This document shows positions 42,349-62,269 of a DNA stretch of 64,000 nucleotides, piece by piece; position 1 is the first letter of the stretch, and each line of letters opens with the position of its first letter. Below the pieces are notes generated by a model. The model saw only the letters and a program-made list of their open reading frames with translations, had not been told where the DNA came from and made no database searches. The translations under genes and the position numbers were made by a program. Source of the DNA: a virus; the IMG/VR virus record IMGVR_UViG_3300045988_057044, positions 53,907 through 117,906 of that record; one strand, written 5' to 3'.

Positions 42349-42634
42349 GATTCTGTAAGTTGGACAACTTATCAGTTCTTACACTGACCAGTAGCCCACC
42401 CTTACGTAAGTTGTAACTAAGTTTAATTCCGCAATGATTTAGAATTTCGATAAACTCTCTCAATGCGCTTCCCTTTAACACATTTCTGTAGACTAGTTTC
42501 TGACCATCTTGATATCCTGCTCGATAATATTCATTCGCAACATCAGAAATAAGCCATCGCTTAATAGGAGATACCCTACTTAAGAGTTCATTGACTCTGG
42601 TTGCGATAAAATCCATATTACTGAATACTATCAA
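42293..42634 (-). CDS. hypothetical protein (113 aa)
   Basis: ORF track. Confidence 0.4.
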   Translation of the reverse strand: MIVFSNMDFIATRVNELLSRVSPIKRWLISDVANEYYRAGYQDGQKLVYRNVLKGSALREFIEILNHCGIKLSYNLRKGGLLVSVRTDKLSNLQNLVNCYKNEQNKENSPDKG

Positions 42635-42792
42635 TTACAAGACTATCCACACCTAGAGTGTCTACACTCATTGTGTCAGCAACTTCTTTAACGATTGCGA
42701 TAGAATCGTTTTCTGGAGCCTGAGTCTTTGTATTACCTGCACAAGCAGACATCAGTGCAACCATTCCGAAAAGCAATAGTACTTTCTTCATT
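42618..42792 (-). CDS. small putative lipoprotein (57 aa; MKKVLLLFGMVALMSACAGNTKTQAPENDSIAIVKEVADTMSVDTLGVDSLVIDSIQ)
   Basis: Manual rc translation; signal peptide + Cys at +17; below ORF-track size cutoff. Confidence 0.4.
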
Positions 42793-42830
42793 TTTCTTAA
42801 TTTAAATTAGTTAATAATCATTTTATCTAT

Positions 42831-42900
42831 CAAAAAAAAGAGTGGTTCCAGTATCTGTGCTTCACCAGATACTTTCCCCACTCCTATCACTCCGAAGAGC
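42831..42900 (-). terminator. strong rho-independent terminator (minus strand)
   Basis: minus sense GGAGTGGGGAAAGTATCTGGTGAAGCACAGATACTGGAACCACTC followed by TTTTTTTT (long imperfect hairpin incl. CAGTATCTG/CAGATACT arms). Confidence 0.7.
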
Positions 42901-43247
42901 TTGTACCATTATTAGGTTGGTCAACCTCCCTCTTCATCTTGTTGAGAATTTGGGATAATAGTCACCAAGTTTAAAGATTACTTGTAACTGAAGCAAAAGG
43001 CTAGAATCCCGAAGGGATTCCGTAACTCCTTCAACACGTGGTTGACGAGCTATGTAGGAAGCTAACGCGCAGGCAAAGATGAAGTCAAAGACCTAGCTAC
43101 ACTAACAAAGACTCTCAATTAGAGAGTAGGTTGTAAATTTTTGTGTAGCCAGCGAATAAAGATTAAATCCATGCGGATTTAAGAATATACTGTTCATAAT
43201 TATTCCTGTTAAGTATGTTATGTTAGCTTCCTACGGAAGTCCTCTAA
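42841..43247 (-). ncRNA. candidate ~400-nt structured non-coding RNA (function unknown)
   Basis: No ORF >16 codons on the coding strand; locally GC-richer; stable hairpins incl. two C(UUCG)G tetraloops (minus-sense CCCUUCGGG and CUCUUCGGAG), AAATCC-GCAT-GGATTT, CTTCC-GTA-GGAAG; ends in the terminator above. Confidence 0.35.
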
Positions 43248-43430
43248 TTACTTAGAGGAAGAGTCGCCTTGTCTCCTAATCTCTTCGAAAATATCTAAAA
43301 GATTCTTAGGCAAAGCGATTTTTAGTTTGGAAATACGTTCCATTTCAGAAGTTTTCCAACTATTGAAACGACTTCTCAACTCTCCTAATTCGGAGGTATA
43401 TTTGTCGTATTTTGCTTTAAATTCAGCCAT
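43248..43430 (-). CDS. hypothetical protein (60 aa)
   Basis: ORF track. Confidence 0.35.
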   Translation of the reverse strand: MAEFKAKYDKYTSELGELRSRFNSWKTSEMERISKLKIALPKNLLDIFEEIRRQGDSSSK

Positions 43431-43446
43431 TTTCTCACGATACTCT

Positions 43447-43532
43447 TGTTCTTGAGGGGACTCGAACCCACACGCCCATTACTGGGCATCAGAGCTTAAA
43501 TCTGACGTGTCTACCAATTCCACCATTCGGGC
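43447..43532 (-). tRNA. tRNA-Leu(TAA)-like, type II; acceptor stem does not pair (possible pseudogene/chimera)
   Basis: minus sense GCCCGAA-TG-GTG-GAATTGGTAGA-CAC, anticodon arm TCAGA-TTTAAGC-TCTGA (anticodon TAA), variable hairpin TGCCCAGTAATGGGCG, T-loop GGG-TTCGAGT-CCC, but 3' strand CAAGAAC cannot pair with 5' GCCCGAA. Confidence 0.4.
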
Positions 43533-43618
43533 ATAGTGATTAGCTATACTCACGTACCGCTAATCAACTTACTATAATAACAGTACAAGTGTTAAATTCA
43601 AAGTTAAAAACCGTTAAC

Positions 43619-43933
43619 TTATTTAAACTGCAAACAAATGTTAATAAATTTATCGACATCAGTTCCGCAATCTACATAGTTCGGAGTGTTAGCTTCGAAG
43701 TATTTGAGAACGGCCTCTGTTCCAAAAAGTCCCATCTCTTCGAAGTCATACCCCTCACCGTGAATATCCGATGTAGGCATATTTGGTCTGAATACTAACC
43801 AGGCTGTACCAGGAAATTCACAACACGTACAAACAGTCAATCCACTTTCTCTTAGTTTATCTAAGATTTGTGGACTAACTGTTTTCAATACGACACAATT
43901 ATCCGAGTTCTGCAAGTCGTTGTCTGATTTCAT
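43619..43933 (-). CDS. hypothetical protein (104 aa)
   Basis: ORF track. Confidence 0.4.
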   Translation of the reverse strand: MKSDNDLQNSDNCVVLKTVSPQILDKLRESGLTVCTCCEFPGTAWLVFRPNMPTSDIHGEGYDFEEMGLFGTEAVLKYFEANTPNYVDCGTDVDKFINICLQFK

Positions 43934-48675: not shown

Positions 48676-48716
48676 ACAAAAAATACCCCAACAACTTCCG
48701 CTGCTGGGGTACATAG
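48676..48716 (-). terminator. intrinsic terminator after tRNA-Glu
   Basis: minus sense CCCCAGCAGCGGAAGTTGTTGGGG then TATTTTTTGTTT. Confidence 0.55.
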
Positions 48717-48788
48717 TAACGCCAACGGGATTCGAACCCGTATGGCAGGCGTGAAAAGCCTGAATCCTAACCATTAGATGATGGCGCT
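48717..48788 (-). tRNA. tRNA-Glu(TTC)
   Basis: minus sense AGCGCCA...anticodon arm CAGGC-TTTTCAC-GCCTG, T arm ACGGG-TTCGAAT-CCCGT, acceptor pairs (one G.U); CCA not encoded. Confidence 0.8.
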
Positions 48789-48791
48789 ATC

Positions 48792-49466
48792 CTACTGCAC
48801 AATCAAGCTATAAGCTTCTTGCAACAGTTTAATAGTTGGAACCATATGGTTATCAACAACTATTATTTTATAAATGTTCAGAATTTCTTTGTAGGTTAAA
48901 GATGTACAAGTTAGAAATATCTGCGCATCTTCGTTTACAGAACCATTTGACAATCCCAAATCTACTTTAATCATACTGGGTAATGTTCCAATCTGAGAAA
49001 TGTCCCAAGTAGATTTAGTTCTCCTGAAAACTTCCCGCTGTTTGGAAGTAAGTTGCTTTTCTTTCAATCTAGACTCAATAATAGTACCATCAAACGTTAA
49101 CGAACCTCCATCGGTATTACTATTATTTAATGCTAGCTGAATCTTCTGAACTACAGAGTCTTTAGATTTTGGCTTAAGTTGCACTCCTTCCTTCAAGCCC
49201 TTAATAATCTGCAATGAAGGAATAAAGTCTTTTATTTGAGTTGCATTCCACACAAGAAATTTTCCAGGACTATCTTTAACAGTAACTATATACTTAGTCC
49301 CTCCGTTCAATGGAATAATCACTTGTAAGTCTGCATCACTCATTTTACTTAAATGGTCTGATACTCTAACTTTGACGTTTCCAATGACAAAGTAGCGAGA
49401 AACAGTTGTTTCTGCTTCGATAATCTCAGTAGCAGTTGCTACTAAATACTTTTCTAATCTAGTCAT
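48792..49466 (-). CDS. hypothetical protein (224 aa)
   Basis: ORF track. Confidence 0.45.
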   Translation of the reverse strand: MTRLEKYLVATATEIIEAETTVSRYFVIGNVKVRVSDHLSKMSDADLQVIIPLNGGTKYIVTVKDSPGKFLVWNATQIKDFIPSLQIIKGLKEGVQLKPKSKDSVVQKIQLALNNSNTDGGSLTFDGTIIESRLKEKQLTSKQREVFRRTKSTWDISQIGTLPSMIKVDLGLSNGSVNEDAQIFLTCTSLTYKEILNIYKIIVVDNHMVPTIKLLQEAYSLIVQ

Positions 49467-49493
49467 AAAAATTAATCTGATTTAATGGTTAAG

Positions 49494-49566
49494 ATCCCCC
49501 ACTCGGATTCGAACCGAGGTCTCGAGATTACAAATCACGTGTTCTAACCAACTAAACTACAGGGGA
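49494..49566 (-). tRNA. tRNA-Thr(TGT)
   Basis: minus sense TCCCCTG-TA-GTTT-AGTTGGTTA-GAAC-A-CGTGA-TTTGTAA-TCTCG-AGAC-CTCGG-TTCGAAT-CCGAG-TGGGGGA-T; one U.U in anticodon stem. Confidence 0.7.
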
Positions 49567-49702
49567 ATATAGTGGAGATTTCCACTATTTACTAATTCTA
49601 ACCTCTGCGGGAATATACTCATTAGTAAAAGTTTCTAGGTTTTACTTCGGGAACCATTAACCTTGTGCTTACTGTCGGGGACCTTATCCATCCAGAAGCC
49701 TT

Positions 49703-49740
49703 GCCGAGACTGGGGGATTCGAACCCCAACCTTCACAGTG
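49703..49740 (-). pseudogene. tRNA 3'-half remnant (T arm TGGGG-TTCGAAT-CCCCA + acceptor strand AGTCTCGG) abutting tRNA-Asp
   Basis: plus GCCGAGAC-TGGGGGATTCGAACCCCA-ACCTTCACAGT-GCCGAGAG: direct repeat GCCGAGA flanks a T-arm-like hairpin; no 5' half present. Confidence 0.35.
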
Positions 49741-49812
49741 CCGAGAGTACCAGACTCGAACTGGTGACCTTCGCATAGACAGTGCGCTATTCTACCACTG
49801 AACTAACCCTCG
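49741..49812 (-). tRNA. tRNA-Asp(GTC)
   Basis: minus sense CGAGGGT-TA-GTTC-AGTGGTA-GAAT-A-GCGCA-CTGTCTA-TGCGA-AGGTC-ACCAG-TTCGAGT-CTGGT-ACTCTCG-G. Confidence 0.7.
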
Positions 49813-49823
49813 GTGTAACTGGA

Positions 49824-50279
49824 TTACTCCAGACTAATTAAACCCTTCTCTAACATAATATGGTGATTCGGACATAACCATACTAAATTATTCTCATTGT
49901 TAATCTCTTTAATAAGAGTGTCTTCGTCAAATTCTAATATTCCTTTAAGATGATGTACTTCAAGTATTGCATCAAATTCATGATTATGACAATATTGGCA
50001 TACTTTCTCACGTTCGGAACTTTCTAATACTCTACGAGCATTAGTCCTTATTTCTTGACATTTAGATGATAAGTACTTCTGCCCAGATGTATAATAACCT
50101 AATGTTTTGTTACCAATTCCATTAAGTTCTTCCCAGCAACTACGACACATTTCTGAATCTTTATGCTTAGGTTTACCACATCTAGGACATATCTTGTTTT
50201 CATCGTGCTTTATCCTACCTCTATTATTGTAAGAAGCTAATAATGAACTCCATAGGGATATGATAACTATCTGTAACAA
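49824..50279 (-). CDS. HNH endonuclease
   Basis: CPRCGK...CRSCW...CQYCHNHEFDAILEVHHL...NLVWLCPNHH (Zn-finger + HNH His-Me motif). Confidence 0.65.
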   Translation of the reverse strand: MLQIVIISLWSSLLASYNNRGRIKHDENKICPRCGKPKHKDSEMCRSCWEELNGIGNKTLGYYTSGQKYLSSKCQEIRTNARRVLESSEREKVCQYCHNHEFDAILEVHHLKGILEFDEDTLIKEINNENNLVWLCPNHHIMLEKGLISLE

Positions 50280-50442
50280 GCATACCGTTACTTATATGGT
50301 AACGTTCTTTTCTTTCTAATCTAGTGGGATTACCGTTTAGAGTAATCTCACCAGAATATTCATTCTCTTTATCAGGTTTAATTCCCTTTATGTAAATAGA
50401 ACTGCCTGATTCAGCTAAGTAGACCTGTTGTATTACGCTCAT
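50224..50442 (-). CDS. hypothetical protein (72 aa)
   Basis: ORF track. Confidence 0.3.
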   Translation of the reverse strand: MSVIQQVYLAESGSSIYIKGIKPDKENEYSGEITLNGNPTRLERKERYHISNGMLVTDSYHIPMEFIISFLQ

Positions 50443-50864
50443 AGTTCTGGAACATCTGAACGGTCATCATAATAGCCTTCATCCCCAACGAGCTGAGCCA
50501 AGCATCCGTGCATATACGGAACTAATTCCGGTCTTTCTCGATAAGTTCGGAATAAAAGCCAACTCATGCTCGTAGAGTTTCCAGTATGTCCGTTATCAAA
50601 GAACTGAAGTTTGTCCTTAATAGCATCAACTAAGTCGTATAAGCTCTCATATTGCTTCAAGAAGTCTTGATACTGTTCATCACCGAAATCTTGGAAAAAT
50701 TCCGAGAATGAAAGAGCTTGCTTTATACATAACATTTCATACTCAAACAAGTCATCCTCTTCGAAGGAATGGTCGGTTGCAGCTGAGAATAGACGATTAA
50801 ATCGTTCGATTCTGTTTTGAAACTCTACAGGGAGAGTTTCTTTGGTAAGATTTTCGTAATTCAT
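50439..50864 (-). CDS. hypothetical acidic protein (141 aa)
   Basis: ORF track. Confidence 0.4.
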   Translation of the reverse strand: MNYENLTKETLPVEFQNRIERFNRLFSAATDHSFEEDDLFEYEMLCIKQALSFSEFFQDFGDEQYQDFLKQYESLYDLVDAIKDKLQFFDNGHTGNSTSMSWLLFRTYRERPELVPYMHGCLAQLVGDEGYYDDRSDVPEL

Positions 50865-50897
50865 AATCTAAAAATTAAGTATCTAATTAATTACTAG

Positions 50898-50956
50898 TAG
50901 CGGGACTCGACCTTCAGGTTATGAGCCTGACTAGCTACCTCTGCTAACACCCCGCG
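50898..50956 (-). tRNA. tRNA-Met(CAT)-like with deleted T arm (initiator-like 5' end CGCGGGGTG)
   Basis: minus sense CGCGGGG-TG-TTAGC-AGAGGTA-GCTA-G-TCAGG-CTCATAA-CCTGA-AGGTCGAG-TCCCGCT-A; acceptor, D and anticodon arms canonical, only ~3 nt where the 17-nt T arm should be. Confidence 0.4.
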
Positions 50957-50959
50957 ATA

Positions 50960-51139
50960 TTACAAATGTTTTTTAAATATTTCACAATGATTGTATTCAC
51001 TTCCCCAACGTATGGGATATTCTTCTTCCTTGGCTTTCTTATAGCCTTCGGCTTCCTTTTTATCCAGAAATATCTGACACTCAGTTTTATAGTTCTGAGG
51101 CGCATTAGCTGGATGATGATTCACTACGTATACTTTCAT
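50960..51139 (-). CDS. small hypothetical protein (59 aa; MKVYVVNHHPANAPQNYKTECQIFLDKKEAEGYKKAKEEEYPIRWGSEYNHCEIFKKHL)
   Basis: Manual rc translation between two tRNA genes; length multiple of 3, ATG 51137-51139, TAA 50960-50962. Confidence 0.35.
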   Translation of the reverse strand: MKVYVVNHHPANAPQNYKTECQIFLDKKEAEGYKKAKEEEYPIRWGSEYNHCEIFKKHL

Positions 51140-51157
51140 AATTATTTAATTTTGTTG

Positions 51158-51230
51158 TGGACACGCAGGGACTCGAACCCTATCTTCCGGTGTGCAAAAC
51201 CAGCGCTCTAGCCATTTGAGCTAACGGCCC
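51158..51230 (-). tRNA. tRNA-Ala(TGC), acceptor stem weak in inner 3 pairs
   Basis: minus sense GGGCCGT-TA-GCTC-AAATGGCTA-GAGC-G-CTGGT-TTTGCAC-ACCGG-AAGA-TAGGG-TTCGAGT-CCCTG-CGTGTCC-A; G3.U70 present; pairs 5-7 mismatched. Confidence 0.5.
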
Positions 51231-51415
51231 ATGTTTGAGATTTTCTTTTTAATTGGTGACATAACTCATAAATTTCCACTGTTAGGATTCCATAACCTAA
51301 CATCACCAGATAAGTCTTTAATTAGTTATATTCTGGATACATAAGTTTGTAACTATATATCTTTTAACGGCAACCATCCGTTTAACAATTCTCAAGTTCA
51401 GCTTGCCTATTATAA

Positions 51416-51778
51416 CTACGCAGGGACTGGCTTCGACTTATTAGCATAAATGCTAACAAAATGTCCACCACCTTGTTGAGGCGGAAGTATCAAATTTGGA
51501 AAGCGACTACTCCATAGTGCTAATCCAAGAGGAGACGTGCTTGTAAAAAACTCTCCAAGTTCCGATATAGGTTTTTTCAGTTCTCTAAGTTTTTCCGAAA
51601 TTTCCTTATACCTTTTACTCTTTTTATTAATCCCACTTCGCTGTGCCTCTAACTCAGCTATATTATCTAATATAGGTTTGACAATAGACTTGTAGTCTTC
51701 CTGAGTTATTAACAGCTTAACTTGACTTATACCATTTGCATAAGTAAGTTTAAACTTTCCAATAGGTTGTACTATCAT
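51416..51778 (-). CDS. hypothetical protein (120 aa)
   Basis: ORF track. Confidence 0.4.
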   Translation of the reverse strand: MIVQPIGKFKLTYANGISQVKLLITQEDYKSIVKPILDNIAELEAQRSGINKKSKRYKEISEKLRELKKPISELGEFFTSTSPLGLALWSSRFPNLILPPQQGGGHFVSIYANKSKPVPA

Positions 51779-51932
51779 ATCTAATTAATTAAAAGTTGGT
51801 GGATGCTAGCCGTTTCTATTCCACCATTGCGTACTACAGTGCTAGCTACCGTCTAGACGACTCTCTTCCTCACATCGGTCTAGAGTTTGCTGGATTACTT
51901 AGTTAAAAACTAAGGAGGGTTCAGCAAAAAGG

Positions 51933-52017
51933 CGTATGGTGCAGGATTCGAACCTGCGATGGGATTTCTCACGGCGGGTTAACAGCCCGCTGCCGTCGGC
52001 CACTTGGCTAACCATAC
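51933..52017 (-). tRNA. type II (long variable arm, 85 nt) tRNA with anticodon GTT (nominally Asn)
   Basis: minus sense GTATGGT-TA-GCC-AAGTGGCCGAC-GGC-A-GCGGG-CTGTTAA-CCCGC-CGTGAGAAATCCCATC-GCAGG-TTCGAAT-CCTGC-ACCATAC-G; Tyr/Ser-like body, Asn-like anticodon loop. Confidence 0.55.
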
Positions 52018-52259
52018 ATATTATTTCCTCCCAGACATCTGTAAGTACCCCATTGGTACTTACCTTTTAATGATATTTTTACTCTTGTCCTCTGTATGGA
52101 GGAGGTATTGTTCCAGACACTAACCAAGTGTAGTTCTTAGAACTCTGTTCAAAATACCATTTAGCAGCTTTCTTTACAACATTAATTACTTTCTTCATAA
52201 CATTAAAGTTTAAAATTGTTAATAATTAATCTAATAACAGAGCCACAAAAGGAGTTTAG

Positions 52260-52339
52260 TTGCGGAGGTAGGATTCGAACCGTTTATGACGATTTCTAGG
52301 TTATGAGCCTAGCGAGATGACCAACTTCTCTACTCCACG
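52260..52339 (-). tRNA. tRNA-Met(CAT), initiator-like (C1.A72 mismatch), with enlarged/irregular T region
   Basis: minus sense CGTGGAG-TA-GAGA-AGTTGGTCA-TCTC-G-CTAGG-CTCATAA-CCTAG-AAATCGTCATAAACGG-TTCGAAT-CCTAC-CTCCGCA-A; T stem does not form canonically. Confidence 0.45.
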
Positions 52340-52475
52340 ATATTAGTAGCTAATTTACATCCGCTACTCAGGATGCCTTTCACGATAAGGGACGCCCTTC
52401 TAACCGTAGGTGACGACTGGGTGATAACGTAACCAGACACGTTAACTATTGTAGTTAAAAGACTTGCACGTCGAG

Positions 52476-52550
52476 ACTCGGTGGTCAGATTCGAACTGAC
52501 GAATCAGCAGATTTGCAGTCTGAGCCATTAAACCACTCTGGTACACCGAG
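52476..52550 (-). tRNA. tRNA-Cys(GCA)
   Basis: minus sense CTCGGTG...TCAGA-CTGCAAA-TCTGC...GTCAG-TTCGAAT-CTGAC-CACCGAG-T. Confidence 0.7.
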
Positions 52551-52560
52551 GTGACTACTT

Positions 52561-52620
52561 CTCCACCCCGTAAGACTAGTTATTCGGAGATAAGACCAGT
52601 TACAACTTGTAACTGTGGAG
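52561..52620 (-). other. ~60-nt hairpin-rich element (possible tRNA remnant or small RNA)
   Basis: CTCCAC...GTGGAG terminal pairing; perfect 7-bp hairpin CAGTTACA-ACTT-TGTAACTG; no T-loop consensus. Confidence 0.25.
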
Positions 52621-52633
52621 CCTTGTTTCGTCG

Positions 52634-52708
52634 TTCCGATTAAAGGATTTGAACCTCCCACTAATGCTTTATTGGTATGGGCGCTCTACCATACTGAGCT
52701 AAATCGGA
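52634..52708 (-). tRNA. tRNA, anticodon undetermined (canonical acceptor, D and T arms; aberrant 23-nt anticodon region)
   Basis: minus sense TCCGATT-TA-GCTC-AGTATGGTA-GAGC-G-[CCCATACCAATAAAGCATTAGTG]-GGAGG-TTCAAAT-CCTTT-AATCGGA-A; no 5-7-5 anticodon arm can be drawn. Confidence 0.45.
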
Positions 52709-52712
52709 AAAG

Positions 52713-52784
52713 AGTGGATAATGAGAATCGAACTCACATCCTCGGCATGGCAAGCCGATGCACTAACCATTGTGCTATACCCAC
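52713..52784 (-). tRNA. tRNA-Gly(GCC)
   Basis: minus sense GTGGGTA-TA-GCAC-AATGGTTA-GTGC-A-TCGGC-TTGCCAT-GCCGA-GGAT-GTGAG-TTCGATT-CTCAT-TATCCAC-T. Confidence 0.8.
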
Positions 52785-52789
52785 AAATG

Positions 52790-52859
52790 TGCAGGTAGAG
52801 AGACTCTCCCCTCCAGATTGGAAGTCTGGCGTGCTCAATCCATTAACACCACACCTGCA
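52790..52859 (-). tRNA. tRNA-Gly(TCC)-like with T loop reduced to 1 nt
   Basis: minus sense GCAGGTG-TG-GTGT-TAATGGATTGA-GCAC-G-CCAGA-CTTCCAA-TCTGG-AGGG-GAGAG-T-CTCTC-TACCTGC-A; T stem retained, 7-nt T loop missing. Confidence 0.45.
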
Positions 52860-52893
52860 TAATGGAGAGTTTTACGATACTCTCCTAAACGAA

Positions 52894-53238
52894 TTACTCA
52901 GATAACAGCTCCTGCATATCAATCTCGCCAGCTACCTTAGTAATAGCGATTTTGAACGGATTCCCCTTGATTTTGTCAAACAAGTGAGCATCACGAGTTT
53001 CTTTCACCTCGTCAGGGACGTTAAATTTCTTCTTGCCTTTCTCTATGGTTTTCCATGTAACCACCTCGCAGCGAGTTATCTCGTAAACGCTGTCGTTTCG
53101 GTCAACGTAAACCTTGAAAAAGTTCTTTTTGTAGTTGAACTTCTCAACCCTTTTGAAATTCTTGGGATGAGCGTGGAACTTCAAGTCGCATTTTCCATTA
53201 GCTAAGAAAATCAATTCTGCCATAATAATACTCCGCAT
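52894..53238 (-). CDS. hypothetical protein (114 aa)
   Basis: ORF track. Confidence 0.4.
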   Translation of the reverse strand: MRSIIMAELIFLANGKCDLKFHAHPKNFKRVEKFNYKKNFFKVYVDRNDSVYEITRCEVVTWKTIEKGKKKFNVPDEVKETRDAHLFDKIKGNPFKIAITKVAGEIDMQELLSE

Positions 53239-53359
53239 AGTCGGAGATTCAAAGTTAAACTATGTTAATTCCAGTCTTTCGTCTGGCACTCCACCTCGTT
53301 TTAACCAATAGCTACTATTATTCACTATTTGAGCTAAGCTCTAAACTGGGATAAAGGTA

Positions 53360-53635
53360 TTAGTCTATGTAAATAAACGGTTTTCCAAATTCTTCCATGA
53401 AGGACTCAAACCATCCCTCCATTTCTTCGTCACTATCAAAATAGATAGATTCATCATGTCTTTTAGAGAACTCTAAAATGATATGAGGTTTCTGATATAC
53501 TATTCCATCCTTGTAGAAGGCATATCTCTTCTCTAAAGATGAAATCATTTTTTCTTCCGTATAAGTTCCAAAACATGGGTTCCAATAATCTCGATGTATT
53601 TTCCAAAACAAGAATCGTCCACATAATGTACCCAA
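53360..53635 (-). CDS. hypothetical protein (91 aa)
   Basis: ORF track. Confidence 0.35.
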   Translation of the reverse strand: MGTLCGRFLFWKIHRDYWNPCFGTYTEEKMISSLEKRYAFYKDGIVYQKPHIILEFSKRHDESIYFDSDEEMEGWFESFMEEFGKPFIYID

Positions 53636-53675
53636 TCGGGATGCTTTCTAGTTTTAAAAACTAAAACTCTCTTTA

Positions 53676-53978
53676 CTAAACTTCCATTAATATACTTGTC
53701 CATACTTTAATCCCAATATTCTGGGCAGTCATTAATAATCCCTTTTCGCAAAAGCCTTTATCATAGAAAATGCAGGATGAACACGAAAGATTGTCCCTAG
53801 ATTCATATTCTTGAATACCTTCTTGAATATCTCTTTTTGCTTTATATCTATCCTTTCTATTCTCTTTCTTGTATTCATATTGCATCATTCTGCTTCTATA
53901 AGGAGAAGTGCAATTCTTAAGCATCTTTGCGTATTTAGAACTATCAAGGAAGTCCGTAATTGACTCACAGACCTTCAA
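53676..53978 (-). CDS. hypothetical protein (100 aa)
   Basis: ORF track. Confidence 0.35.
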   Translation of the reverse strand: MKVCESITDFLDSSKYAKMLKNCTSPYRSRMMQYEYKKENRKDRYKAKRDIQEGIQEYESRDNLSCSSCIFYDKGFCEKGLLMTAQNIGIKVWTSILMEV

Positions 53979-54121
53979 CGCCTTATTATAGGAACATTAT
54001 ACCTTACATTGGCTTTAATCCCGGCAACAGGTACGTAAAATTTACCGCAAGCGTTGTAAACCTTTTTAGCTCTCGAAATCCACTTTCTTTTAGAAAGTTC
54101 TCTTCTTAATTCTCTATCCAT
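53975..54121 (-). CDS. small basic protein (48 aa; MDRELRRELSKRKWISRAKK...)
   Basis: ORF-track frame 53975..54268 truncated to internal ATG (54119-54121) because its 5' part overlaps tRNA-Cys. Confidence 0.3.
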   Translation of the reverse strand: MDRELRRELSKRKWISRAKKVYNACGKFYVPVAGIKANVRYNVPIIRR

Positions 54122-54141
54122 AAGCAATAAGATTAGTGTAG

Positions 54142-54215
54142 AATCTAGAGTGGGATTCGAACCCACGAAACACGGTTTTGCAGACCGTTCCCTTAGACCG
54201 CTCGGGCATCTAGAC
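54142..54215 (-). tRNA. tRNA-Cys(GCA) (second copy, different body)
   Basis: minus sense GTCTAGA-TG-CCC-GAGCGGTCTAA-GGG-A-ACGGT-CTGCAAA-ACCGT-GTTTC-GTGGG-TTCGAAT-CCCAC-TCTAGAT-T. Confidence 0.7.
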
Positions 54216-54242
54216 ATAAAGGGGAGACTAGCTCCCCAAGTT

Positions 54243-55655
54243 TTATAGTACCAAAGAGTTGTAAGCACCTCTACGATACAGAGACGGTCTACTATTTGGA
54301 TCTTTAATCCAGTAGTAATTGATTTCCTTGCTGTCTTTAGTAACTACGATTCCTAGTTTCTTGTCAATCGCAATAATTTCGTCATCATAGAAGTCATCTC
54401 CAACTGCCAGATTTGCGAACTTAATATCCGAAGATACATAGTAATATGACAGATTGTGGAAATTGTGGCGGCGATATTCATAATACTCGTTAAGAGCTTT
54501 TCTTTCCTCAACAGTACAGTTATCCTCATCGTCTACAATAGGCTTCGGCATCGGATTGTTGAATCTCTCAACAGCTTTAGAGAACTCTTCAATAGAGAAT
54601 TTATTCTTATCAGCAGAAATCTCACCAGCATATGCATAACCTCTAATGCAGGAATAGTCATACTCATTAGTTACTACGTTGAAGAAGCCTTTAGCTCTTC
54701 TCAATCCTTCTATACCGTGAATATTGACCTCATTAACTATAGTTTTGAGAATATCAATAGTAGATATAGTCAAAGAATCAATGAAATCAAGCAAATCTTG
54801 ACGAGCTTCCGGCACTTGAAGTGCGTCGTCCAGATATTCGTTCACAACCTTCAAATCCAAGTTGCCAAATTCCTTGACATAACGGATTCTAGACGGACGT
54901 CCTACCATATTCTCATTGATGGTCATAGCATTAGTAGTAAGCAGGAAAACCTTGCGATACTTAGAGTTGTAAACACCGTCCATGATTTGCAAGATAGTAG
55001 AATCCGATTCACTGAAATTCTTTTCAAATTCATCCAAGAACAGAATGCAATCTCCTTCAATACCAGAAAGGAACTCAATCATAGATTGATTATGGTCTCC
55101 CATATCCTTTACGATAATGATGGGCAGATTTAGCTTGTTAGCCAGTTCCTTAGCAGTAACAGTCTTTCCAGTGCCCTTTGTACCAGTAAGCATAATTCCG
55201 AGATTGCCTTCTGTAGCGTGATACGTCTTAATTACATGGTCAATAAACTCGTTCTGCAAACCATACATTTTGTACGGGAATACAAACTTATCCGCATATC
55301 TGTCTAGGTGATAACCTGTCATTGTCAGACAAATACTGTAGATTCCAACTGGGAGAGACTGCTCAACGCTATAGCCTGAGCTTACCTGGGTATATGTAGA
55401 CCCAGAACACATCCAAACTTTGTTCATTTTTTCTTTTTCTAAGTTACTTAAAACAGATGCCTGTTTGAGACATCCTACTAATTGATTAGCTATAGAATCT
55501 ATAGCTTCTTTGTTATCAGTTTCCTCTGAGAGTCTTTTTACAAACCACTCTTTAGAACGGGCAACTATTTGCTCATCAGTCTCATTTTCAGAGATTGTTT
55601 CAGCAAATTCATGGTAGATACTAGTCAGCTTACCTTCTAATTCTTCTACGGTCAT
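54243..55655 (-). CDS. AAA+ ATPase
   Basis: Walker A IMLTGTKGTGKTVTAKEL, Walker B CILFLDEFEK. Confidence 0.65.
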   Translation of the reverse strand: MTVEELEGKLTSIYHEFAETISENETDEQIVARSKEWFVKRLSEETDNKEAIDSIANQLVGCLKQASVLSNLEKEKMNKVWMCSGSTYTQVSSGYSVEQSLPVGIYSICLTMTGYHLDRYADKFVFPYKMYGLQNEFIDHVIKTYHATEGNLGIMLTGTKGTGKTVTAKELANKLNLPIIIVKDMGDHNQSMIEFLSGIEGDCILFLDEFEKNFSESDSTILQIMDGVYNSKYRKVFLLTTNAMTINENMVGRPSRIRYVKEFGNLDLKVVNEYLDDALQVPEARQDLLDFIDSLTISTIDILKTIVNEVNIHGIEGLRRAKGFFNVVTNEYDYSCIRGYAYAGEISADKNKFSIEEFSKAVERFNNPMPKPIVDDEDNCTVEERKALNEYYEYRRHNFHNLSYYYVSSDIKFANLAVGDDFYDDEIIAIDKKLGIVVTKDSKEINYYWIKDPNSRPSLYRRGAYNSLVL

Positions 55656-55810
55656 TAGTAATCCTCCTCGTTATGTTCATTAGTTATGAGAGAACGAGCC
55701 TTTTCCATACCAGATTCGTAAGACTCTGTAACAAACACTATGGCAGTTTTTAGGTCCATGGAATTGCCATTGTCTACCATTTCCTGAATAATTTCACTTA
55801 ACTCTTTCAT
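55655..55810 (-). CDS. small hypothetical protein (~51 aa) translationally coupled (TAATG) to the AAA+ gene
   Basis: Manual rc translation MKELSEIIQEMVDNGNSMDLKTAIVFVTESYESGMEKARSLITNEHNEEDY; stop overlaps downstream ATG. Confidence 0.3.
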   Translation of the reverse strand: MKELSEIIQEMVDNGNSMDLKTAIVFVTESYESGMEKARSLITNEHNEEDY

Positions 55811-55832
55811 ATTACTTAATAAATAAAAGTTG

Positions 55833-55907
55833 TAGGGTAGGAGGGACTCGAACCCTCACGGCACATGGGCCTAAACCATGCCTGTCTACCAATTCCAGCA
55901 CTACCCC
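55833..55907 (-). tRNA. tRNA with anticodon TAG (Leu, reads CUA) on a class-I-length (75 nt) body
   Basis: minus sense GGGGTAG-TG-CTG-GAATTGGTAGA-CAG-G-CATGG-TTTAGGC-CCATG-TGCCGT-GAGGG-TTCGAGT-CCCTC-CTACCCT-A; lacks the long variable arm of bacterial tRNA-Leu. Confidence 0.6.
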
Positions 55908-55916
55908 TTGCTCTAG

Positions 55917-56348
55917 TTAATTGTTATTATAATTGTGAAGTTGCATATGACAGTTAGAGCAAACTATCATTAGATTATCCAACTTATTATTATAATGGTT
56001 ATTATCCTTGTGATGTAATTCTAAAGGAATTTTCATTCCCTCTGATAATCCACAACGCTCACACTTATCTTCTTTATATCCATCCTCTATTAATCTTATC
56101 CTCTTTCTAGAATTAGAAACATTAGGATTTTCTATCAGGTCTAAAGCATCTTTCCTCTTTGGGTCTAGTCTTTTTCCCTTAGAACCTTGATTCCCCTTAT
56201 ACTCTATTCCCATCTTAATATAATAGGATTTTAAAGTATCAACCTTGCAATTTAGTCTTCTAGCTATTTCAGCATTAGACTCATTTTCTGAAATCCATTG
56301 TCGGATTTCCTATTCTCTTTCTAAAATGTCGATTCTTGCCTTTGCCAT
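55917..56348 (-). CDS. HNH endonuclease with N-terminal HTH domain, interrupted by an in-frame TAG (56310-56312) 12 codons after the ATG
   Basis: ORF-track ORF 55917..56213 (CERCG...HHKDNNHYNNKLDNLMIVCSNCH = HNH). Its frame continues upstream through EIRQWISENESNAEIARRLNCKVDTLKSYYIK (sigma-region-4/LuxR-type HTH) with no start codon until MAKARIDILERE-TAG. Confidence 0.5.
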
Positions 56349-56383
56349 ATTAAATACTATAAATTCCGCCACTACCCCAACTG

Positions 56384-56845
56384 TTAGGTTGCTTTTATTT
56401 CTTTAGCAACCTTAACCATTTCGTTATATTTCTCTACTACCTTATTAAAGTCTTCCTCAGATATTTGAAAAACTTTGTGAGAGTTTCCATACCACTCTTC
56501 TTGACCAGGAAGCCACGTTATATTAATATACCTCTTCTTTTCTAATTCCATATGTACCTTAGATGAATCAATATAAACTGAATAGGCATCCTCTTCGATT
56601 CTACTACTTCGTGGATCTGTTGGGTCGGATGTAAGTCTGAAAAACATTGTTGACATACCATTGAAGTCTATCTTGAAACACTTTCCTATATAGCTTTTAA
56701 GTAGTGCTTTATGTCTATTATCGCTATCTACCTTCTCTTGGTGTCTCTTCCGTTCTTCTTCCTTAACATATTCATTATACTCTCTTAGAGTGCTGTCTGG
56801 ATGCTTGTCCAGATATTCTTCTATAGGACTCTTTCTTCCCCACAT
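56384..56845 (-). CDS. hypothetical protein (153 aa)
   Basis: ORF track. Confidence 0.4.
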   Translation of the reverse strand: MWGRKSPIEEYLDKHPDSTLREYNEYVKEEERKRHQEKVDSDNRHKALLKSYIGKCFKIDFNGMSTMFFRLTSDPTDPRSSRIEEDAYSVYIDSSKVHMELEKKRYINITWLPGQEEWYGNSHKVFQISEEDFNKVVEKYNEMVKVAKEIKAT

Positions 56846-56846
56846 A

Positions 56847-57257
56847 TTATACTACTTTAAGATGGCAATAAATACTAAATTCTGGAATTGGAATCCAAGT
56901 TGCAATACCATTGCTATCTACTGGTTTACCCTTGTTGATTGTACAAATAGTGATATGAGGTTTAGCATTTGCACAAGGCAGATATTGGTCTCCCAATTCT
57001 ACTCCAAAAGCTATTGCTTTCTCAGAAATCCCTATTTTGTTTACAATTAATCGAAAATTACCATCTATACGATATTGTAGGTCATTAGCCATCTTTTCTT
57101 CATGTTGATTTTTATGGAGAAGAGTGCAATGATCTAAATAAATAGTACTTCCTCTTTGGAACACCAGATTGCAAATAATGGGATTTCCAATGATAACTTG
57201 CATAAGTTTGTTTCTAGTTGGTTCATCTAAGAACAATCCAAAATACTGATAATTCAT
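56847..57257 (-). CDS. hypothetical protein (136 aa)
   Basis: ORF track. Confidence 0.4.
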   Translation of the reverse strand: MNYQYFGLFLDEPTRNKLMQVIIGNPIICNLVFQRGSTIYLDHCTLLHKNQHEEKMANDLQYRIDGNFRLIVNKIGISEKAIAFGVELGDQYLPCANAKPHITICTINKGKPVDSNGIATWIPIPEFSIYCHLKVV

Positions 57258-57395
57258 AAGTTTTATTTTTTAATTATTTGAAATCAGACCTCATATCCGT
57301 TCCATGGAGCGCAATATAAGCCGACTATACTCGTGGCAACCTATATTACTTGATATGTCTTTTCGGTTGTACTACTTTCTCCGTATCTGATTATG

Positions 57396-57464
57396 TGAAC
57401 CTATTGGGACTTGAACCCAAATCTAGCCAACGCGTCTAGACCTTTATTCCAATTAGGTAGGCTC
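57396..57464 (-). tRNA. tRNA-like sequence, undetermined (good acceptor and T arm, 4 nt short, no canonical D/anticodon arms)
   Basis: minus sense GAGCCTA...GGTCTAGACGCGTTGGCTAGA...TTGGG-TTCAAGT-CCCAA-TAGGTTC-A; interior is palindrome-rich (GTCTAGAC, ACGCGT). Confidence 0.3.
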
Positions 57465-57479
57465 AAGTGTGGACCTAGA

Positions 57480-57554
57480 GGGCTTTGAACCCCCGACCTT
57501 CTGATTATGAGTCAGCTGCTCTGACCGGACTGAGCTATAGGTCCTAAATATTAT
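57480..57554 (-). tRNA. tRNA-Met or tRNA-Ile2(CAT)
   Basis: minus sense GGACCTA-TA-GCTC-AGTCCGGTCA-GAGC-A-GCTGA-CTCATAA-TCAGA-AGGTC-GGGGG-TTCAAAG-CCCTC-TAGGTCC-A. Confidence 0.75.
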
Positions 57555-57904
57555 TCGTATGCACTTATTGATTTGCATTCAAATATTACTGTCTTCCCTA
57601 GAACATCACTTGGTTTTATATTAAACTTAGCAAATTCCAGCATCAACTTTTCCATTTCTTCTACAGAATGTGTTTCTCCTATGATACTTTTTCTATCTAT
57701 AGAAGTTTGAAAATTGGCAAACAATTCTGTAACTAAACAACTATTACTCTCATTTCTTACTATTATTTGTTCTTCTGGTTTTAACTTTTCTGCTGCATCA
57801 GAGTGTAACTTACCACACCAACAAACTCCGAATGAATTTTCCCGGACTTTACATTTACCTTTGTCACAAAACTTGACAACCTTTCTATAATCTTCTGGCT
57901 TCAT
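57551..57904 (-). CDS. hypothetical protein (117 aa)
   Basis: ORF track. Confidence 0.4.
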   Translation of the reverse strand: MKPEDYRKVVKFCDKGKCKVRENSFGVCWCGKLHSDAAEKLKPEEQIIVRNESNSCLVTELFANFQTSIDRKSIIGETHSVEEMEKLMLEFAKFNIKPSDVLGKTVIFECKSISAYE

Positions 57905-58329
57905 AATTTAGAACGTATATCGTTAATTAACGCTTGAATCATATGAGTTTGTTCTCTCCATTTGTAATGAAATTCAAGACTGTTAGACTCTTCTTCGGTT
58001 AATGGAATATGAAATAATATTTTATGGTATATATTCTTAAACCATTTCCTCTCAAGCTTCCTACTTTCCTTAGTTCCTACCTCATATCCTCTCTTAGATT
58101 TACGGTTCTTAGAACGACCACGTGCCCAACCAAATTGTTTGCCATCATTCACCCATTTCCAGTCGGCTCTGGCTTCTTTTTGCCTAAGCCTCTTGTTAAT
58201 GATATTAATCTTTTCTATCTCTTCCATATTTGTTAATTTTGTTGGGCTACTAGGACTCGAACCTAGACTGACAGAATCAAAATCTGTAGTGCTAACCATT
58301 ACACCCAATACTAACTTAACTATTCTCAC
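57901..58329 (-). CDS. hypothetical basic protein (142 aa)
   Basis: ORF track. Confidence 0.4.
   Translation of the reverse strand: MRIVKLVLGVMVSTTDFDSVSLGSSPSSPTKLTNMEEIEKINIINKRLRQKEARADWKWVNDGKQFGWARGRSKNRKSKRGYEVGTKESRKLERKWFKNIYHKILFHIPLTEEESNSLEFHYKWREQTHMIQALINDIRSKL
58242..58313 (-). tRNA. tRNA-Gln(TTG)-like; acceptor strands do not pair (possible chimera/pseudogene)
   Basis: minus sense TAGTATT-GG-GTGT-AATGGTTA-GCAC-T-ACAGA-TTTTGAT-TCTGT-CAGT-CTAGG-TTCGAGT-CCTAG-TAGCCCA-A. Confidence 0.45.
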
Positions 58330-58370
58330 GAACCATTAAGTCCACATTTACCATGAAAACACACAATGTG

Positions 58371-58447
58371 TGGGACGAGGCAGAATCGAACTGCCGCTAT
58401 CGTCCCGGATTTTCAGTCCAGCGCTCTACCAACTGAGCTATCGTCCC
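58371..58447 (-). tRNA. tRNA-Phe(GAA) with 9-nt variable loop
   Basis: minus sense GGGACGA-TA-GCTC-AGTTGGTA-GAGC-G-CTGGA-CTGAAAA-TCCGG-GACGATAGC-GGCAG-TTCGATT-CTGCC-TCGTCCC-A; variable region repeats the 5' motif GGGACGATAGC. Confidence 0.7.
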
Positions 58448-58698
58448 ATGTAATCAGATACTCAAATCTAATACATTTTTGTTCCACCAGTTAGTTAAAT
58501 CTTGTAAAGAAAACTTAAATACAGTTTCAAAGTCTTCTACAGAAACAACTTCCTCTCCTATCTCTCCAGCCCACATGCTTTTGTCTCTTCTAAGGAAATG
58601 GGTTCTTCCATAAGCCATGTATCATTCAGTAACATATCCATGAATGGCTTATGTAGTGATGCAAATATTCTAATCTTCCATAACAATGTTTATTTAAG

Positions 58699-58783
58699 CG
58701 GAGGCAGCTGGATTCGAACCAGCGGGACCCGAAGGCCCTCCGTCTTAGCAGGACGGTGGTTTAAGCCACTCACCCATACCTCC
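58699..58783 (-). tRNA. tRNA-Ser(GCT)
   Basis: minus sense GGAGGTA-TG-GGT-GAGTGGCTTAA-ACC-A-CCGTC-CTGCTAA-GACGG-long variable arm-GCTGG-TTCGAAT-CCAGC-TGCCTCC-G. Confidence 0.8.
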
Positions 58784-58845
58784 AGATTGCAAAGGGGCTT
58801 TTGTTATACTTTACTATTGAAATTGTAAAGCCCCTTCGCTGTGAA

Positions 58846-60819: not shown

Positions 60820-60835
60820 CTTTTAAAAATTCTTT

Positions 60836-61354
60836 TTAGTTAAAATAATACTTTCCATTCTCAAATTTAGAAATTACCACACGAGTACCAACCATATATC
60901 CCATTTTTGGGACTTCTGGATAGGCTACAATTTCCTCAGAACCTCCATTTACTTCAATAGTAATGAAGAAATGGTTTTCACAAGGAACTGTGATAATTCC
61001 AACCCTTCCAATCAAGGCTTCACCCTCTTCTGGAATAACTTGATGCTGGAGTTTTAAACAGAGTTTATATAAGTAGTAAAGTATAACCACGAAAAGAATA
61101 CCGCATACTAATGCGATTAGATAATCATACCATTCTACAGAATGGGATACGGATTGCTTAACACAAAGCCATCCACTAGCCCCCATTATAAAATGGATTA
61201 ATCCCTTAAATGAGACAATATCACTCACGTTCATATCTAGTTCTCCATCTAAATCAACATCTAAGTCAGTGTCTCCGCCAAACCAAGATAAGATGAATTG
61301 AACTAGAAAAATGCCATATGAAATGGCTGCCAAAAGATAATACACTTCACTCAT
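60836..61354 (-). CDS. NfeD-like membrane protein (flotillin partner)
   Basis: Hydrophobic N-terminal helices plus C-terminal beta-rich OB-like segment (GRVGIITV...GYMVGTRVVISKFENG); located immediately upstream of the flotillin gene as in bacterial nfeD-floT operons. Confidence 0.5.
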   Translation of the reverse strand: MSEVYYLLAAISYGIFLVQFILSWFGGDTDLDVDLDGELDMNVSDIVSFKGLIHFIMGASGWLCVKQSVSHSVEWYDYLIALVCGILFVVILYYLYKLCLKLQHQVIPEEGEALIGRVGIITVPCENHFFITIEVNGGSEEIVAYPEVPKMGYMVGTRVVISKFENGKYYFN

Positions 61355-61575
61355 CTCTTACAATATTTACAATCTGGGTCATGGACTACTCCTACAACTT
61401 GGTATTGTCCCTCGGTGAATTTAATGTACTGATGATTCTTGTATTTAAAGTGAACTGCGGTATCAAATGGAATAATTCCATCTCTGGTATTCCTAGTAGC
61501 TTCTAGTTCACTAGTTGGACCTGAACAACTAAATAGTAGCACAAGTCCTAATGAGATAATTGTTAGCTTTTTCAT
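61351..61575 (-). CDS. small lipoprotein (74 aa)
   Basis: MKKLTIISLGLVLLFSCSG = signal peptide + lipobox. Confidence 0.45.
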   Translation of the reverse strand: MKKLTIISLGLVLLFSCSGPTSELEATRNTRDGIIPFDTAVHFKYKNHQYIKFTEGQYQVVGVVHDPDCKYCKR

Positions 61576-61583
61576 AATTCTTT

Positions 61584-62000: not shown

Positions 62001-62068
62001 AGCACGCCCGCTAGGAATAATAGTTTTGGAGACTATCCTCTTAAACCACTTGAGTACGGACGTATTTG

Positions 62069-62157
62069 CGGAAGGACAGGGATTCGAACCCTGGGGACGT
62101 GTTACCGCCCGACGGTTTTCAAGACCGTTGCAATAAGCCTGACTCTGCCACCCTTCC
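62069..62157 (-). tRNA. tRNA-Ser(TGA)
   Basis: minus sense GGAAGGG-TG-GCA-...-TGC-A-ACGGT-CTTGAAA-ACCGT-long variable arm-CAGGG-TTCGAAT-CCCTG-TCCTTCC-G. Confidence 0.8.
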
Positions 62158-62181
62158 AAAAGCTAGTCTTATGACTAGCCA
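62158..62181 (-). terminator. intrinsic terminator between 62270..62719 and tRNA-Ser
   Basis: perfect hairpin GCTAGTC-ATAA-GACTAGC (minus sense) followed by TTTT. Confidence 0.5.
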
Positions 62182-62269
62182 AAAATCATACCAAGAAGCA
62201 ATATTACACAGAATATAGCTAGAATACACCAGCCTATAGCCTGGATTGCTCCTCAGCCAAATATACAAA

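Follow-up and report, generated by a model that had tools for sequence, protein, structure and literature searches.

The DNA analysed here, in the following called the window, is a stretch of 64,000 nucleotides (nt) of a virus (IMG/VR record IMGVR_UViG_3300045988_057044, positions 53,907 to 117,906), and the element in question is a structured non-coding RNA situated between two short open reading frames (ORFs). On the minus strand, a tRNA-Leu(UAA)-like gene is followed by an ORF of 60 amino acids (aa), around 415 nt without a long ORF, a hairpin with a tract of eight U (U8) and an ORF of the lipoprotein type. The terminator and all neighbouring genes lie on this strand, as do nearly all ORFs of at least 120 aa in the 64-kb window. 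The RNA and the two ORFs that border it are:

42618-42791, minus: lipoprotein-type ORF of 57 aa, starting around 40 nt past the terminator
42832-43258, minus: structured non-coding RNA, ending at an intrinsic terminator
43248-43430, minus: ORF of 60 aa, the upstream neighbour of the RNA

The initial annotation, made from the letters of the window, had described the gap between the two ORFs as non-coding and as the source of a structured transcript ending at a strong terminator, and both descriptions hold: no conserved ORF and no conserved small protein spanning the region was found in relatives, and the structure is conserved with abundant compensatory changes. At the 5' side, the structure begins around 11 nt further upstream than annotated, with a hairpin at 43241-43258. 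The statement that the gap is visibly richer in G and C (GC) was too strong, its GC content being 0.395 against a mean of 0.363±0.030 for 415-nt windows, 14% of which are equally or more GC-rich. Likewise, an ATG-initiated ORF of 31 codons on the same strand (43102-43197, minus), which is not conserved in relatives, contradicts the claim that no ORF exceeds 16 codons. The minimum free energy of the minus-strand fold is -129.3 kcal/mol, compared with -98.7±6.6 kcal/mol for dinucleotide shuffles (z = -4.6); since the plus strand behaves similarly (z = -4.9), energy alone does not decide on the strand.

The 3' module and the strand under selection

The part of the RNA that is common to all lineages, which are cited below by L numbers, is a 3' module of around 165 nt. 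It consists of four hairpins around a core, and a pseudoknot of 6 bp, formed by its 5' end with its own terminator loop, locks the fold. Its features in the window are:

42832-42995, minus: entire 3' module (pseudoknot strand, H7, core with H8, H9, H10, terminator)
42990-42995, minus: 5' strand of the pseudoknot, UGCUUC, the first bases of the module, pairing with GAAGCA
42961-42988, minus: H7, GUUAC-AAGU / ACUU-G-GUGAC, with a 9-nt loop (AAUCUUUAA) and a covarying inner stem
42922-42966, minus: near-invariant core of 45 nt, GGUGACUAUUAUCCCAAAUUCUCAACAAGAUGAAGAGGGAGGUUG, holding putative H8 and a GGAGG motif
42928-42954, minus: putative H8 (CCC…GGG and UUC…GAA), within the core
42901-42924, minus: H9, UUG-ACCA ACCUAAUAA UGGU-A-CAA, with covariation
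42889-42900, minus: H10, hairpin GCUC-UUCG-GAGU with a variable loop
42858-42863, minus: 3' strand of the pseudoknot, GAAGCA, within the terminator loop
42832-42884, minus: intrinsic terminator with outer stem GGAGUGG/CCACUC(U), inner stem GUAUCUG/CAGAUAC, 8-nt loop and U8 (42832-42839)

A covariance model of the module (R1) recovers it in all 27 loci searched, with scores of 109-214 bits. In the alignment of these 27 sequences, which was fitted to the model, 96.9% of the cells are paired, compared with 90.0% after shuffling and 37-48% when the pairing partners are slid. Changes on both sides were found for 25 of the 46 pairs; shuffled alignments yield 9.9±1.5 such pairs (none of 500 reaches 25) and slid partners 3-9. 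A separate MAFFT alignment of 16 sequences contains 15 pairs changed on both sides versus 3.9±1.4 in shuffles.

Concerning the pseudoknot, L104 possesses UACGUC/GACGUA, i.e., two double changes, and L127 UGCUUU/AAAGCA, whereas in L125 a one-base insertion is matched on each side (UGCUUUC/GAAAGCA). To our knowledge, it is unusual that a small RNA is locked into a closed fold by a pseudoknot with the terminator loop. The inner stem of H7 varies as AGGU/ACCU (L125), CAAAG/CUUUG (L127) and UAGG/CCUA (L133), with four pairs changed on both sides, and its loop keeps a self-complementary UUAA in most lineages (lost in L138). In H9, three pairs are changed on both sides, with pair types such as CG/AU/GC and UA/AU/GC. 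The same covariation backs the pairing UUG-ACCA / UGGU-A-CAA in place of the hairpin GGUUGG-UCAACC that had been listed for this position; the sequence actually reads GGUUGACCAACC (42915-42926) and would leave a loop of 2 nt. In the terminator, recognised from the outset as a long imperfect hairpin with U8, both stems covary (6/7 and 7/7 pairs changed on both sides), and a U-rich tail is found in all lineages. It is missing from the output of a simple terminator scan; its stem of 7+7 bp is interrupted, and the outer stem encloses around 35 nt.

Two hairpins with C(UUCG)G loops had been taken as a mark of structured RNA. Both exist, namely H10 and, between the two domains, H6 (GGAAUCCC-UUCG-GGAUUCU, 43003-43021), but the tetraloops are incidental: H6 is missing or replaced in relatives, and H10, three of whose four pairs are changed on both sides, carries the loops UUCG, AUUU, GUAA, GAAU or AUUA.

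Of the 14 lineages compared, all but L127 (83%) keep the core at 91-100% identity, whereas the last 165 nt of the adjacent ORF reach only 56-75% nucleotide identity in the same lineages. This near-invariance is the most remarkable trait of the RNA.

G·U pairs are frequent in the helices, some of them being fixed (U·G in 27/27 sequences, G·U in 22/27 and 19/27), and non-pairs are few. As G·U would be A·C on the other strand, these pairs, together with the U-tract and the loop pseudoknot, argue that the minus-strand RNA and not a DNA hairpin is under selection. Just one ORF recurs, the micro-ORF MKREV(D/G)xPN…, with its ATG in the core (42938-42940), more precisely in the H8 loop, and its stop, in the window, 3 nt before the terminator stem. 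In 12 of 17 lineages it is 14-19 codons long, whereas L092 has 8 codons and L017 and L104 have 35, such that the position of the stop wanders, and the ATG is replaced by ACG or AAG in L068, L135, L127 and L138. Its substitutions are mostly non-synonymous, with radical changes at codons 6, 7, 10 and 11 (Q/R/I/V/G; G/C/R/D), which form the sides of the H9 pairs. A conserved small protein was rejected on these grounds, since the start is lost in four lineages, the length shifts and the changes follow the compensation in H9. An ORF hidden by stop-codon recoding was likewise rejected, more than one type of stop codon being present in every frame. What is under selection is the fold of the minus-strand RNA and not a protein.

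The 5' domain, homologues and neighbouring genes

Upstream of the module, the RNA has a 5' domain of more variable sequence, linked to the module by two peripheral hairpins:

43054-43258, minus: 5' domain of around 240 nt, closed by the 13-bp helix H1 and containing variable hairpins and tandem hexamers
43241-43258, minus: H0, CCUCUAA-GUAA-UUAGAGG, the 5' edge of the structure, lying across the upstream ORF's stop codon (43248-43250)
43222-43234, minus: 5' strand of H1, GUAGGAAGCUAAC, a long-range helix closing the 5' domain
43054-43066, minus: 3' strand of H1, GUUAGCUUCCUAC, partner of 43222-43234
43165-43180, minus: H2, AAAUCC-GCAU-GGAUUU, a variable peripheral hairpin
43143-43152, minus: 5' strand of H3, CUGGCUACAC, preceded by a conserved AUUCG
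43093-43102, minus: 3' strand of H3, GUGUAGCUAG, followed by a conserved GUCUUUG
43112-43126, minus: H4, CUCUC-UAAUU-GAGAG, a hairpin enclosed by H3
43067-43111, minus: hexamers (G/A)UCUU(U/C/A), flanking the 3' strand of H3 (43103-43111 and 43067-43092, GUCUUUGACUUCAUCUUUGCCUGCGC)
43023-43052, minus: H5, UAGCUC…GAGUUA with inner UCAAC/GUUGA, peripheral, between the domains
43003-43021, minus: H6, peripheral, between the domains

The H1 duplex is formed in all 16 lineages tested, with 99.5% of the cells paired and 12 of 13 pairs changed on both sides. H3 forms 9-10 of its 10 pairs in 16 lineages with more than ten different sequences, and 9 of the 10 pairs are changed on both sides. Excerpts of H1 and H3 from 14 lineages are paired in 98.8% of the cells (29-38% when slid), with 21 of 23 pairs changed on both sides, and the covariation among related phages, which had been named as a check on the RNA, is strong here as in the module (25/46). 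Although the strands were selected partly for complementarity, perfect helices of 10-13 bp with at least ten different sequences at one place are far above chance. The initially listed hairpin CUUCC-GUA-GGAAG (43227-43239) overlaps the covarying 5' strand of H1, and as a local hairpin it is absent in divergent relatives.

Compensatory versions exist for H0 (CUUCUAA/UUAGAAG in L017/L023; extended or different in L106, L127 and L132) and for H4 (CUCUUAU…AUAAGAG in L017, GAGAA…UUCUC in L045, CCUUAUA…UAUAAGG in L104). H2, present as first described, is kept with altered sequence in L054 and L017 (AGAAAUC-ACUG-GAUUUCU), and other hairpins occupy its place in distant lineages. H5 and H6 show compensatory changes in close relatives; they are absent in L104, L106, L132, L133 and L127, in which 1-7 nt lie between the end of H1 and the 3' module. 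In L045, an insert of around 290 nt (1100-1390, minus) is situated in place of H6; it contains a T-arm-like GGTTTGAATCC and further hairpins, is shorter in L131, and may represent a peripheral expansion or an inserted element.

The hexamer stretches (GUCUUY) are predicted to be single-stranded junction segments. The motif is kept in every lineage that has the 5' domain, and its copy number differs by indels of 6 and 12 nt among near-identical phages, the window being two units short. As the units vary in number, the indels are multiples of three; they are thus due to slippage of the hexamer repeats, and their interpretation as the sign of a reading frame was rejected. Duplexes between the hexamer repeats and the purine-rich core always form (-8 to -15 kcal/mol), as expected from composition, and their register is not conserved, so that such pairing is no more than an idea.

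Around 100 loci were obtained by scanning viral contigs, species-representative genomes and metagenomes with DNA patterns, and all of them lie on phage-like contigs of up to around 190 kb. Twelve further lineages were reached via the neighbouring upstream protein, by fetching contigs of its distant members, and the RNA is present in 12 of 12; the protein itself comprises 432-446 clusters at 90% identity. Concerning cultured phages, no homologue of the RNA was found beyond one unannotated GenBank record, MT836666, a gut-phage scaffold to which the window is 94% identical; it is also close to around 50 IMG/VR contigs of up to around 190 kb. Species-representative bacterial genomes yielded two true matches only, the remainder being chance: L085 (DXLM01000001.1, 186 kb, the size of a whole phage genome), deposited in a metagenome-assembled genome (MAG) of "Bacteroides sp.", and L086 (CALEBD010000016.1), which carries the phage RNA and was deposited in a "Clostridium sp." MAG. 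Both are likely phage contigs binned into bacterial MAGs.

The window codes for DNA polymerase A, helicases, RNA and DNA ligases, NrdD, NAMPT, RNase H and a tRNA array, and its DNA polymerase is nearest to that of crAss-like phages (45-52% amino-acid identity), including isolates infecting Bacteroides intestinalis. Within the sequences compared, the RNA family is confined to a clade of human-gut phages of around 185-190 kb with a polymerase related to the crAss-like one. The hosts of this clade are probably Bacteroidales, in view of the kinship of the polymerase, the lipoprotein-type signal peptides and the "Bacteroides sp." MAG contig L085.

Besides these genes, the tRNA array (48716-63376, minus) contains 17 tRNAs according to Rfam, several of the calls being unusually long (85-90 nt), and four of them are missed by ARAGORN (51158-51230, 52634-52708, 58242-58307 and 63310-63376; Rfam 39-43 bits). 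The RNA ligase and ATP-dependent DNA ligase genes (8937-10304 and 12576-13775, minus) share the window with this array, which suggests tRNA repair against host anticodon nucleases.

In most lineages a gene for a helical protein of around 302 aa precedes the RNA. It is full-length in L045 (1635-2546) and L125-L139; in L001, the gene lies at 2371-3060. The 60-aa ORF of the window is a C-terminal remnant of this protein (BLASTP, 61% identity over 56 aa, residues 247-302 in L045), and the copy in MT836666 has an internal deletion and comprises 229 aa. The gene thus decays in the sub-clade of the window while the RNA downstream is intact. Since the RNA persists where the gene is eroded (window, MT836666), it is independent of the 302-aa protein.

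A further remnant lies upstream of the 60-aa ORF:

43448-43533, minus: tRNA-Leu(UAA) remnant, called by ARAGORN; Rfam 26 bits, below the cut-off of 29, matching model positions 8-63 only

It lacks the 3' acceptor strand, the breakpoint lying right after the T arm, whereas the copies in L045 and L127 are intact. Compared with relatives, one deletion took the 3' end of tRNA-Leu, a GIY-YIG gene, a 55-aa ORF and most of the 302-aa gene. The idea that tRNA-Leu and the region after it form a tRNA that is split or interrupted by an intron, or an attachment (att) site, was therefore rejected, as the relatives show a plain deletion. Homing-endonuclease genes (GIY-YIG/HNH) are situated directly upstream of the 302-aa gene in L001 (1674-1829), L125 (1825-2457), L134 (1683-2189) and L135 (1607-2149), and such free-standing endonucleases fit a mosaic locus prone to indels. 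Just 5' of the tRNA-Leu remnant, the hairpin UUAGCGGUACGUGAGUAUAGCUAAU (43539-43563, minus) gives a weak, incomplete Rfam match to Bacteroides-1 RNA of 16.8 bits (E = 7), which is probably due to chance.

The next gene downstream of the RNA is a lipoprotein gene in the window, L045 and L090, an RNase H gene in L106, L109, L133, L134 and L139, and another small ORF in L104, L092, L125, L127 and others. RNase H recurs 0-1.3 kb downstream in most lineages.

Concerning transcription, the 3' module stands alone in L109, 4 nt after TATATTTG, which we take to match the -7 promoter box of Bacteroidetes, TAnnTTTG. In L092 and L115 a tRNA array precedes the module, which in L092 lies around 100 nt after a tRNA. 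The initial annotation had suggested a search for a promoter just upstream of the RNA, near 43250; in the window, the stretch from the upstream ORF to the module contains no -7 box (TAnnTTTG), and the box is not enriched in the window as a whole either (73 found, 70.5 expected). As the structure begins at the stop-codon hairpin H0 and no promoter motif lies between, the RNA of the window is likeliest made as a 3' extension of the upstream gene's transcript, ending at the terminator. In L092 (4100-5526), as also in L115, around 1.4 kb upstream of the module are devoid of ORFs and hold tRNAs and tRNA-like genes with inserts, among them, in L092, a tRNA match of 111 nt (5316-5426) and an ARAGORN "tRNA-???" with a four-base anticodon. 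In both, the motif ACTTACAATA(T/C)TA recurs between and within tRNA-like genes; it might act as a promoter of the phage or as a signal for processing.

Function of the RNA

The explanation we favour, while holding it tentatively and short of even chances, is a stable trans-acting RNA that binds a conserved partner. Three features suggest it: the invariant core is large, the pseudoknotted fold is closed, and the RNA is independent of both neighbouring genes. The 3' module would constitute the functional unit, able to stand free with its own -7 box (L109) or after a tRNA array (L092), and the invariant core would bind a highly conserved macromolecule, either a protein of the host or the phage or the translation machinery. 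The 5' domain with its hexamer repeats might serve as an optional, multivalent protein-binding accessory.

Several points weigh against this explanation or against the fold on which it is built. The 27-sequence alignment of the module was fitted to the covariance model and is therefore biased towards structure, and the strands of H1 and H3 were selected by conserved flanking anchors and best complement, which favours pairing. The pairs of H8 are invariant save one C-G to U·G change, such that this helix and the structure of the core are putative. For the 302-aa protein, sequence searches of Pfam, PHROGs and the PDB were uninformative, as were Foldseek searches of its helical AlphaFold model (predicted local distance difference test, pLDDT, 87) against the PDB and BFVD. 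Finally, the next start codon comes only 13-40 nt after the U-tract; the downstream genes may need read-through, which fits a role in cis.

Such a role is the basis of one rival explanation, an attenuator or leader in which a ligand, a protein or translation of the micro-ORF sets the read-through into the downstream block. The short gaps leave little room for a promoter, RNase H recurs downstream, and the micro-ORF begins in the H8 loop and, in the window, ends 3 nt before the terminator stem. The immediate downstream gene nevertheless differs by lineage, so that the expectation for a riboswitch, a single constant downstream gene family, is not borne out, and no riboswitch model matches. The micro-ORF has lost its start in L068, L135, L127 and L138 and ends at anything from 8 to 35 codons. 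An inspection by eye, without systematic search, revealed no conserved antiterminator pairing, and the pseudoknot on the terminator loop is compatible with the terminator hairpin, which it stabilises and does not compete with. We regard an attenuator as unlikely, and the "riboswitch-like leader" first proposed fits poorly, given the differing downstream genes and the apparent own promoter of the module in one lineage. The proposed "phage small RNA (sRNA)" fits in the general sense. In its narrower form, a base-pairing sRNA made from a 3' untranslated region or its own promoter, the core or a loop would act as a seed regulating Bacteroidales or phage mRNAs. We consider this a minor but serious candidate: its layout of a conserved region with a Rho-independent terminator after it recurs in GibS and FopS, where likewise a seed precedes the terminator hairpin (PMC11697453), and L109 has a stand-alone gene behind a -7 box. 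Then again, 45 invariant nt far exceed the needs of a seed, the compact, multi-helix, pseudoknotted fold offers no free 5' seed, and the best complementarity to other transcripts, within the 64-kb window only, is 13 nt, as in shuffles (11-15 nt).

A self-assembling or catalytic "ornate" RNA, i.e., a ribozyme, as was also proposed initially, or an RNA-only multimer resembling GOLLD or ROOL, appears improbable. It would agree with a phage-encoded RNA beside tRNA genes with a universal 3' and a less conserved 5' part, as in GOLLD (PMC12286853), with the pseudoknot and extremely conserved core, and with the self-complementary UUAA in the H7 loop of most lineages; yet the core unit measures only 165 nt, neither GOLLD nor ROOL models match, evidence for cleavage or ligation sites is lacking, and L138 has lost the loop motif. 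The idea of a small protein or dual-function RNA, with selection on the micro-ORF, retains very little plausibility. Its 14-19 codons recur in 12 of 17 lineages, and its ATG has an A at -3, -6 and -12 to -14, which resembles the initiation context of Bacteroidetes; against this stand the ACG and AAG replacements of the start in four lineages, the lengths of 8 codons in L092 and 35 in L017 and L104, and the radical changes at codons 6, 7, 10 and 11, the two sides of H9 pairs. Least credible of all is an element acting as DNA, such as an origin with iterons or hairpins, a packaging site or a recombination site. Tandem hexamers of variable copy number, equal folding energies of both strands and the nearby RNase H and replication genes are in line with it, whereas the helices accept G·U and almost never A·C, which constitutes a strand asymmetry, a U-tract terminator with a loop pseudoknot is sensible only for an RNA, and the locus exhibits neither a switch of the gene strand nor a turn of the GC skew.

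Returning to a trans-acting RNA with a conserved partner, one more specific version, to which we assign a small chance, makes the 165-nt module a phage device engaging the host translation apparatus or, alternatively, a GOLLD/ROOL-like RNA-only particle. The AUG of the core (42938-42940), in an A-rich context, is directly followed by AGAGGGAGG with a Shine-Dalgarno-like GGAGG, and Shine-Dalgarno tracts are rare in Bacteroidetes, a phylum that largely avoids them. In the translational version, the core might serve as a decoy for initiation or bind the 16S 3' tail, S1 or bS21; ribosomes would be re-programmed during infection, with a second factor brought in by the hexamer-bearing 5' domain.

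Time and again, orphan RNAs that are structured and hardly vary in their cores have proved to be ribozymes, riboswitches, sponges for proteins or assemblies made of RNA only. The present RNA may prove to be just another phage sRNA; it belongs, however, to a clade of phages that is widespread in the human gut, where more than 430 clusters are formed by the neighbouring protein alone, and its design is distinctive, with a terminator-loop pseudoknot, a near-invariant core of 45 nt and an optional hexamer-repeat domain. The RNA biology of the probable hosts, Bacteroidales, which have neither Hfq nor CsrA and initiate translation atypically, is poorly known, and with its defined secondary structure, pseudoknot and clear boundaries the RNA is amenable to direct experiment.

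Comparison with known RNA families

Searched at gathering score, the whole window yields only tRNAs in Rfam 15; nothing was found on the RNA at E <= 10 (42600-43700), nor at E <= 1 in four divergent homologue loci. We are confident that the RNA represents a genuine structured family; it is a new, uncatalogued one, of the known general kind of orphan structured phage RNAs. Around 10,000 unnamed candidate structured RNAs have been predicted from IMG/VR (PMC10690425), and the RNA could be one of them. A transfer-messenger RNA was rejected, as neither ARAGORN nor Rfam reports one at the locus, and so was a group I or II intron, which finds no Rfam match, the element being bordered by a stop codon on one side and a terminator on the other.

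Bacteria are known to make abundant decoy RNAs, and a "6S-like decoy" had been proposed initially. 6S RNA is a rod-like helix of around 180 nt with a large central bubble mimicking an open promoter; the 3' module is similar in size, but it is built from four hairpins together with a terminator and a pseudoknot, and 6S models do not match it. The tRNA gene cluster of phage T4 includes small stable RNAs ("species 1 and 2", RNA C/D), which the paper cited next for this region does not mention; as an analogy only, they likewise are phage RNAs beside a tRNA cluster with free-standing homing endonucleases. One of these endonucleases, SegB, is described from the T4 tRNA region (PMC2330249).

The sRNAs GibS and FopS of Bacteroides, which share the probable host group, consist of a conserved seed and a terminator hairpin (PMC11697453). 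Their single-stranded 5' seed contrasts with the multi-helix pseudoknotted fold and 45-nt core found here. Such sRNAs are bound by a protein of the RNA recognition motif (RRM) type, the phylum lacking Hfq and CsrA (PMC11697453; PMC13370968); no simple binding motif for comparison is given for RbpB in PMC11697453.

The closest analogues in kind are GOLLD and ROOL, although the RNA is not a member of either family. Both are phage or prophage RNAs near tRNA islands (in GOLLD, often); GOLLD possesses a universal 3' region, a less conserved 5' region and pseudoknots, and ROOL a complex pseudoknotted fold with no known protein partner or function (PMC12286853). The RNA described here is similarly phage-encoded, situated beside a tRNA-Leu gene (found upstream of it in L045, L127 and the window) and around 5.7 kb from a tRNA array, and, like GOLLD, it falls into two parts, a 3' module that is universal and a 5' domain that is optional and variable. 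Despite this general similarity there are differences: no model of either family matches, at E <= 10 in the window or E <= 1 in the homologues; compared with ROOL, the RNA is smaller and of another architecture; and whereas GOLLD often exceeds 800 nt, the universal unit here measures around 165 nt and the whole RNA 420-720 nt, the hosts are different ones, and the pseudoknot makes use of the terminator loop.

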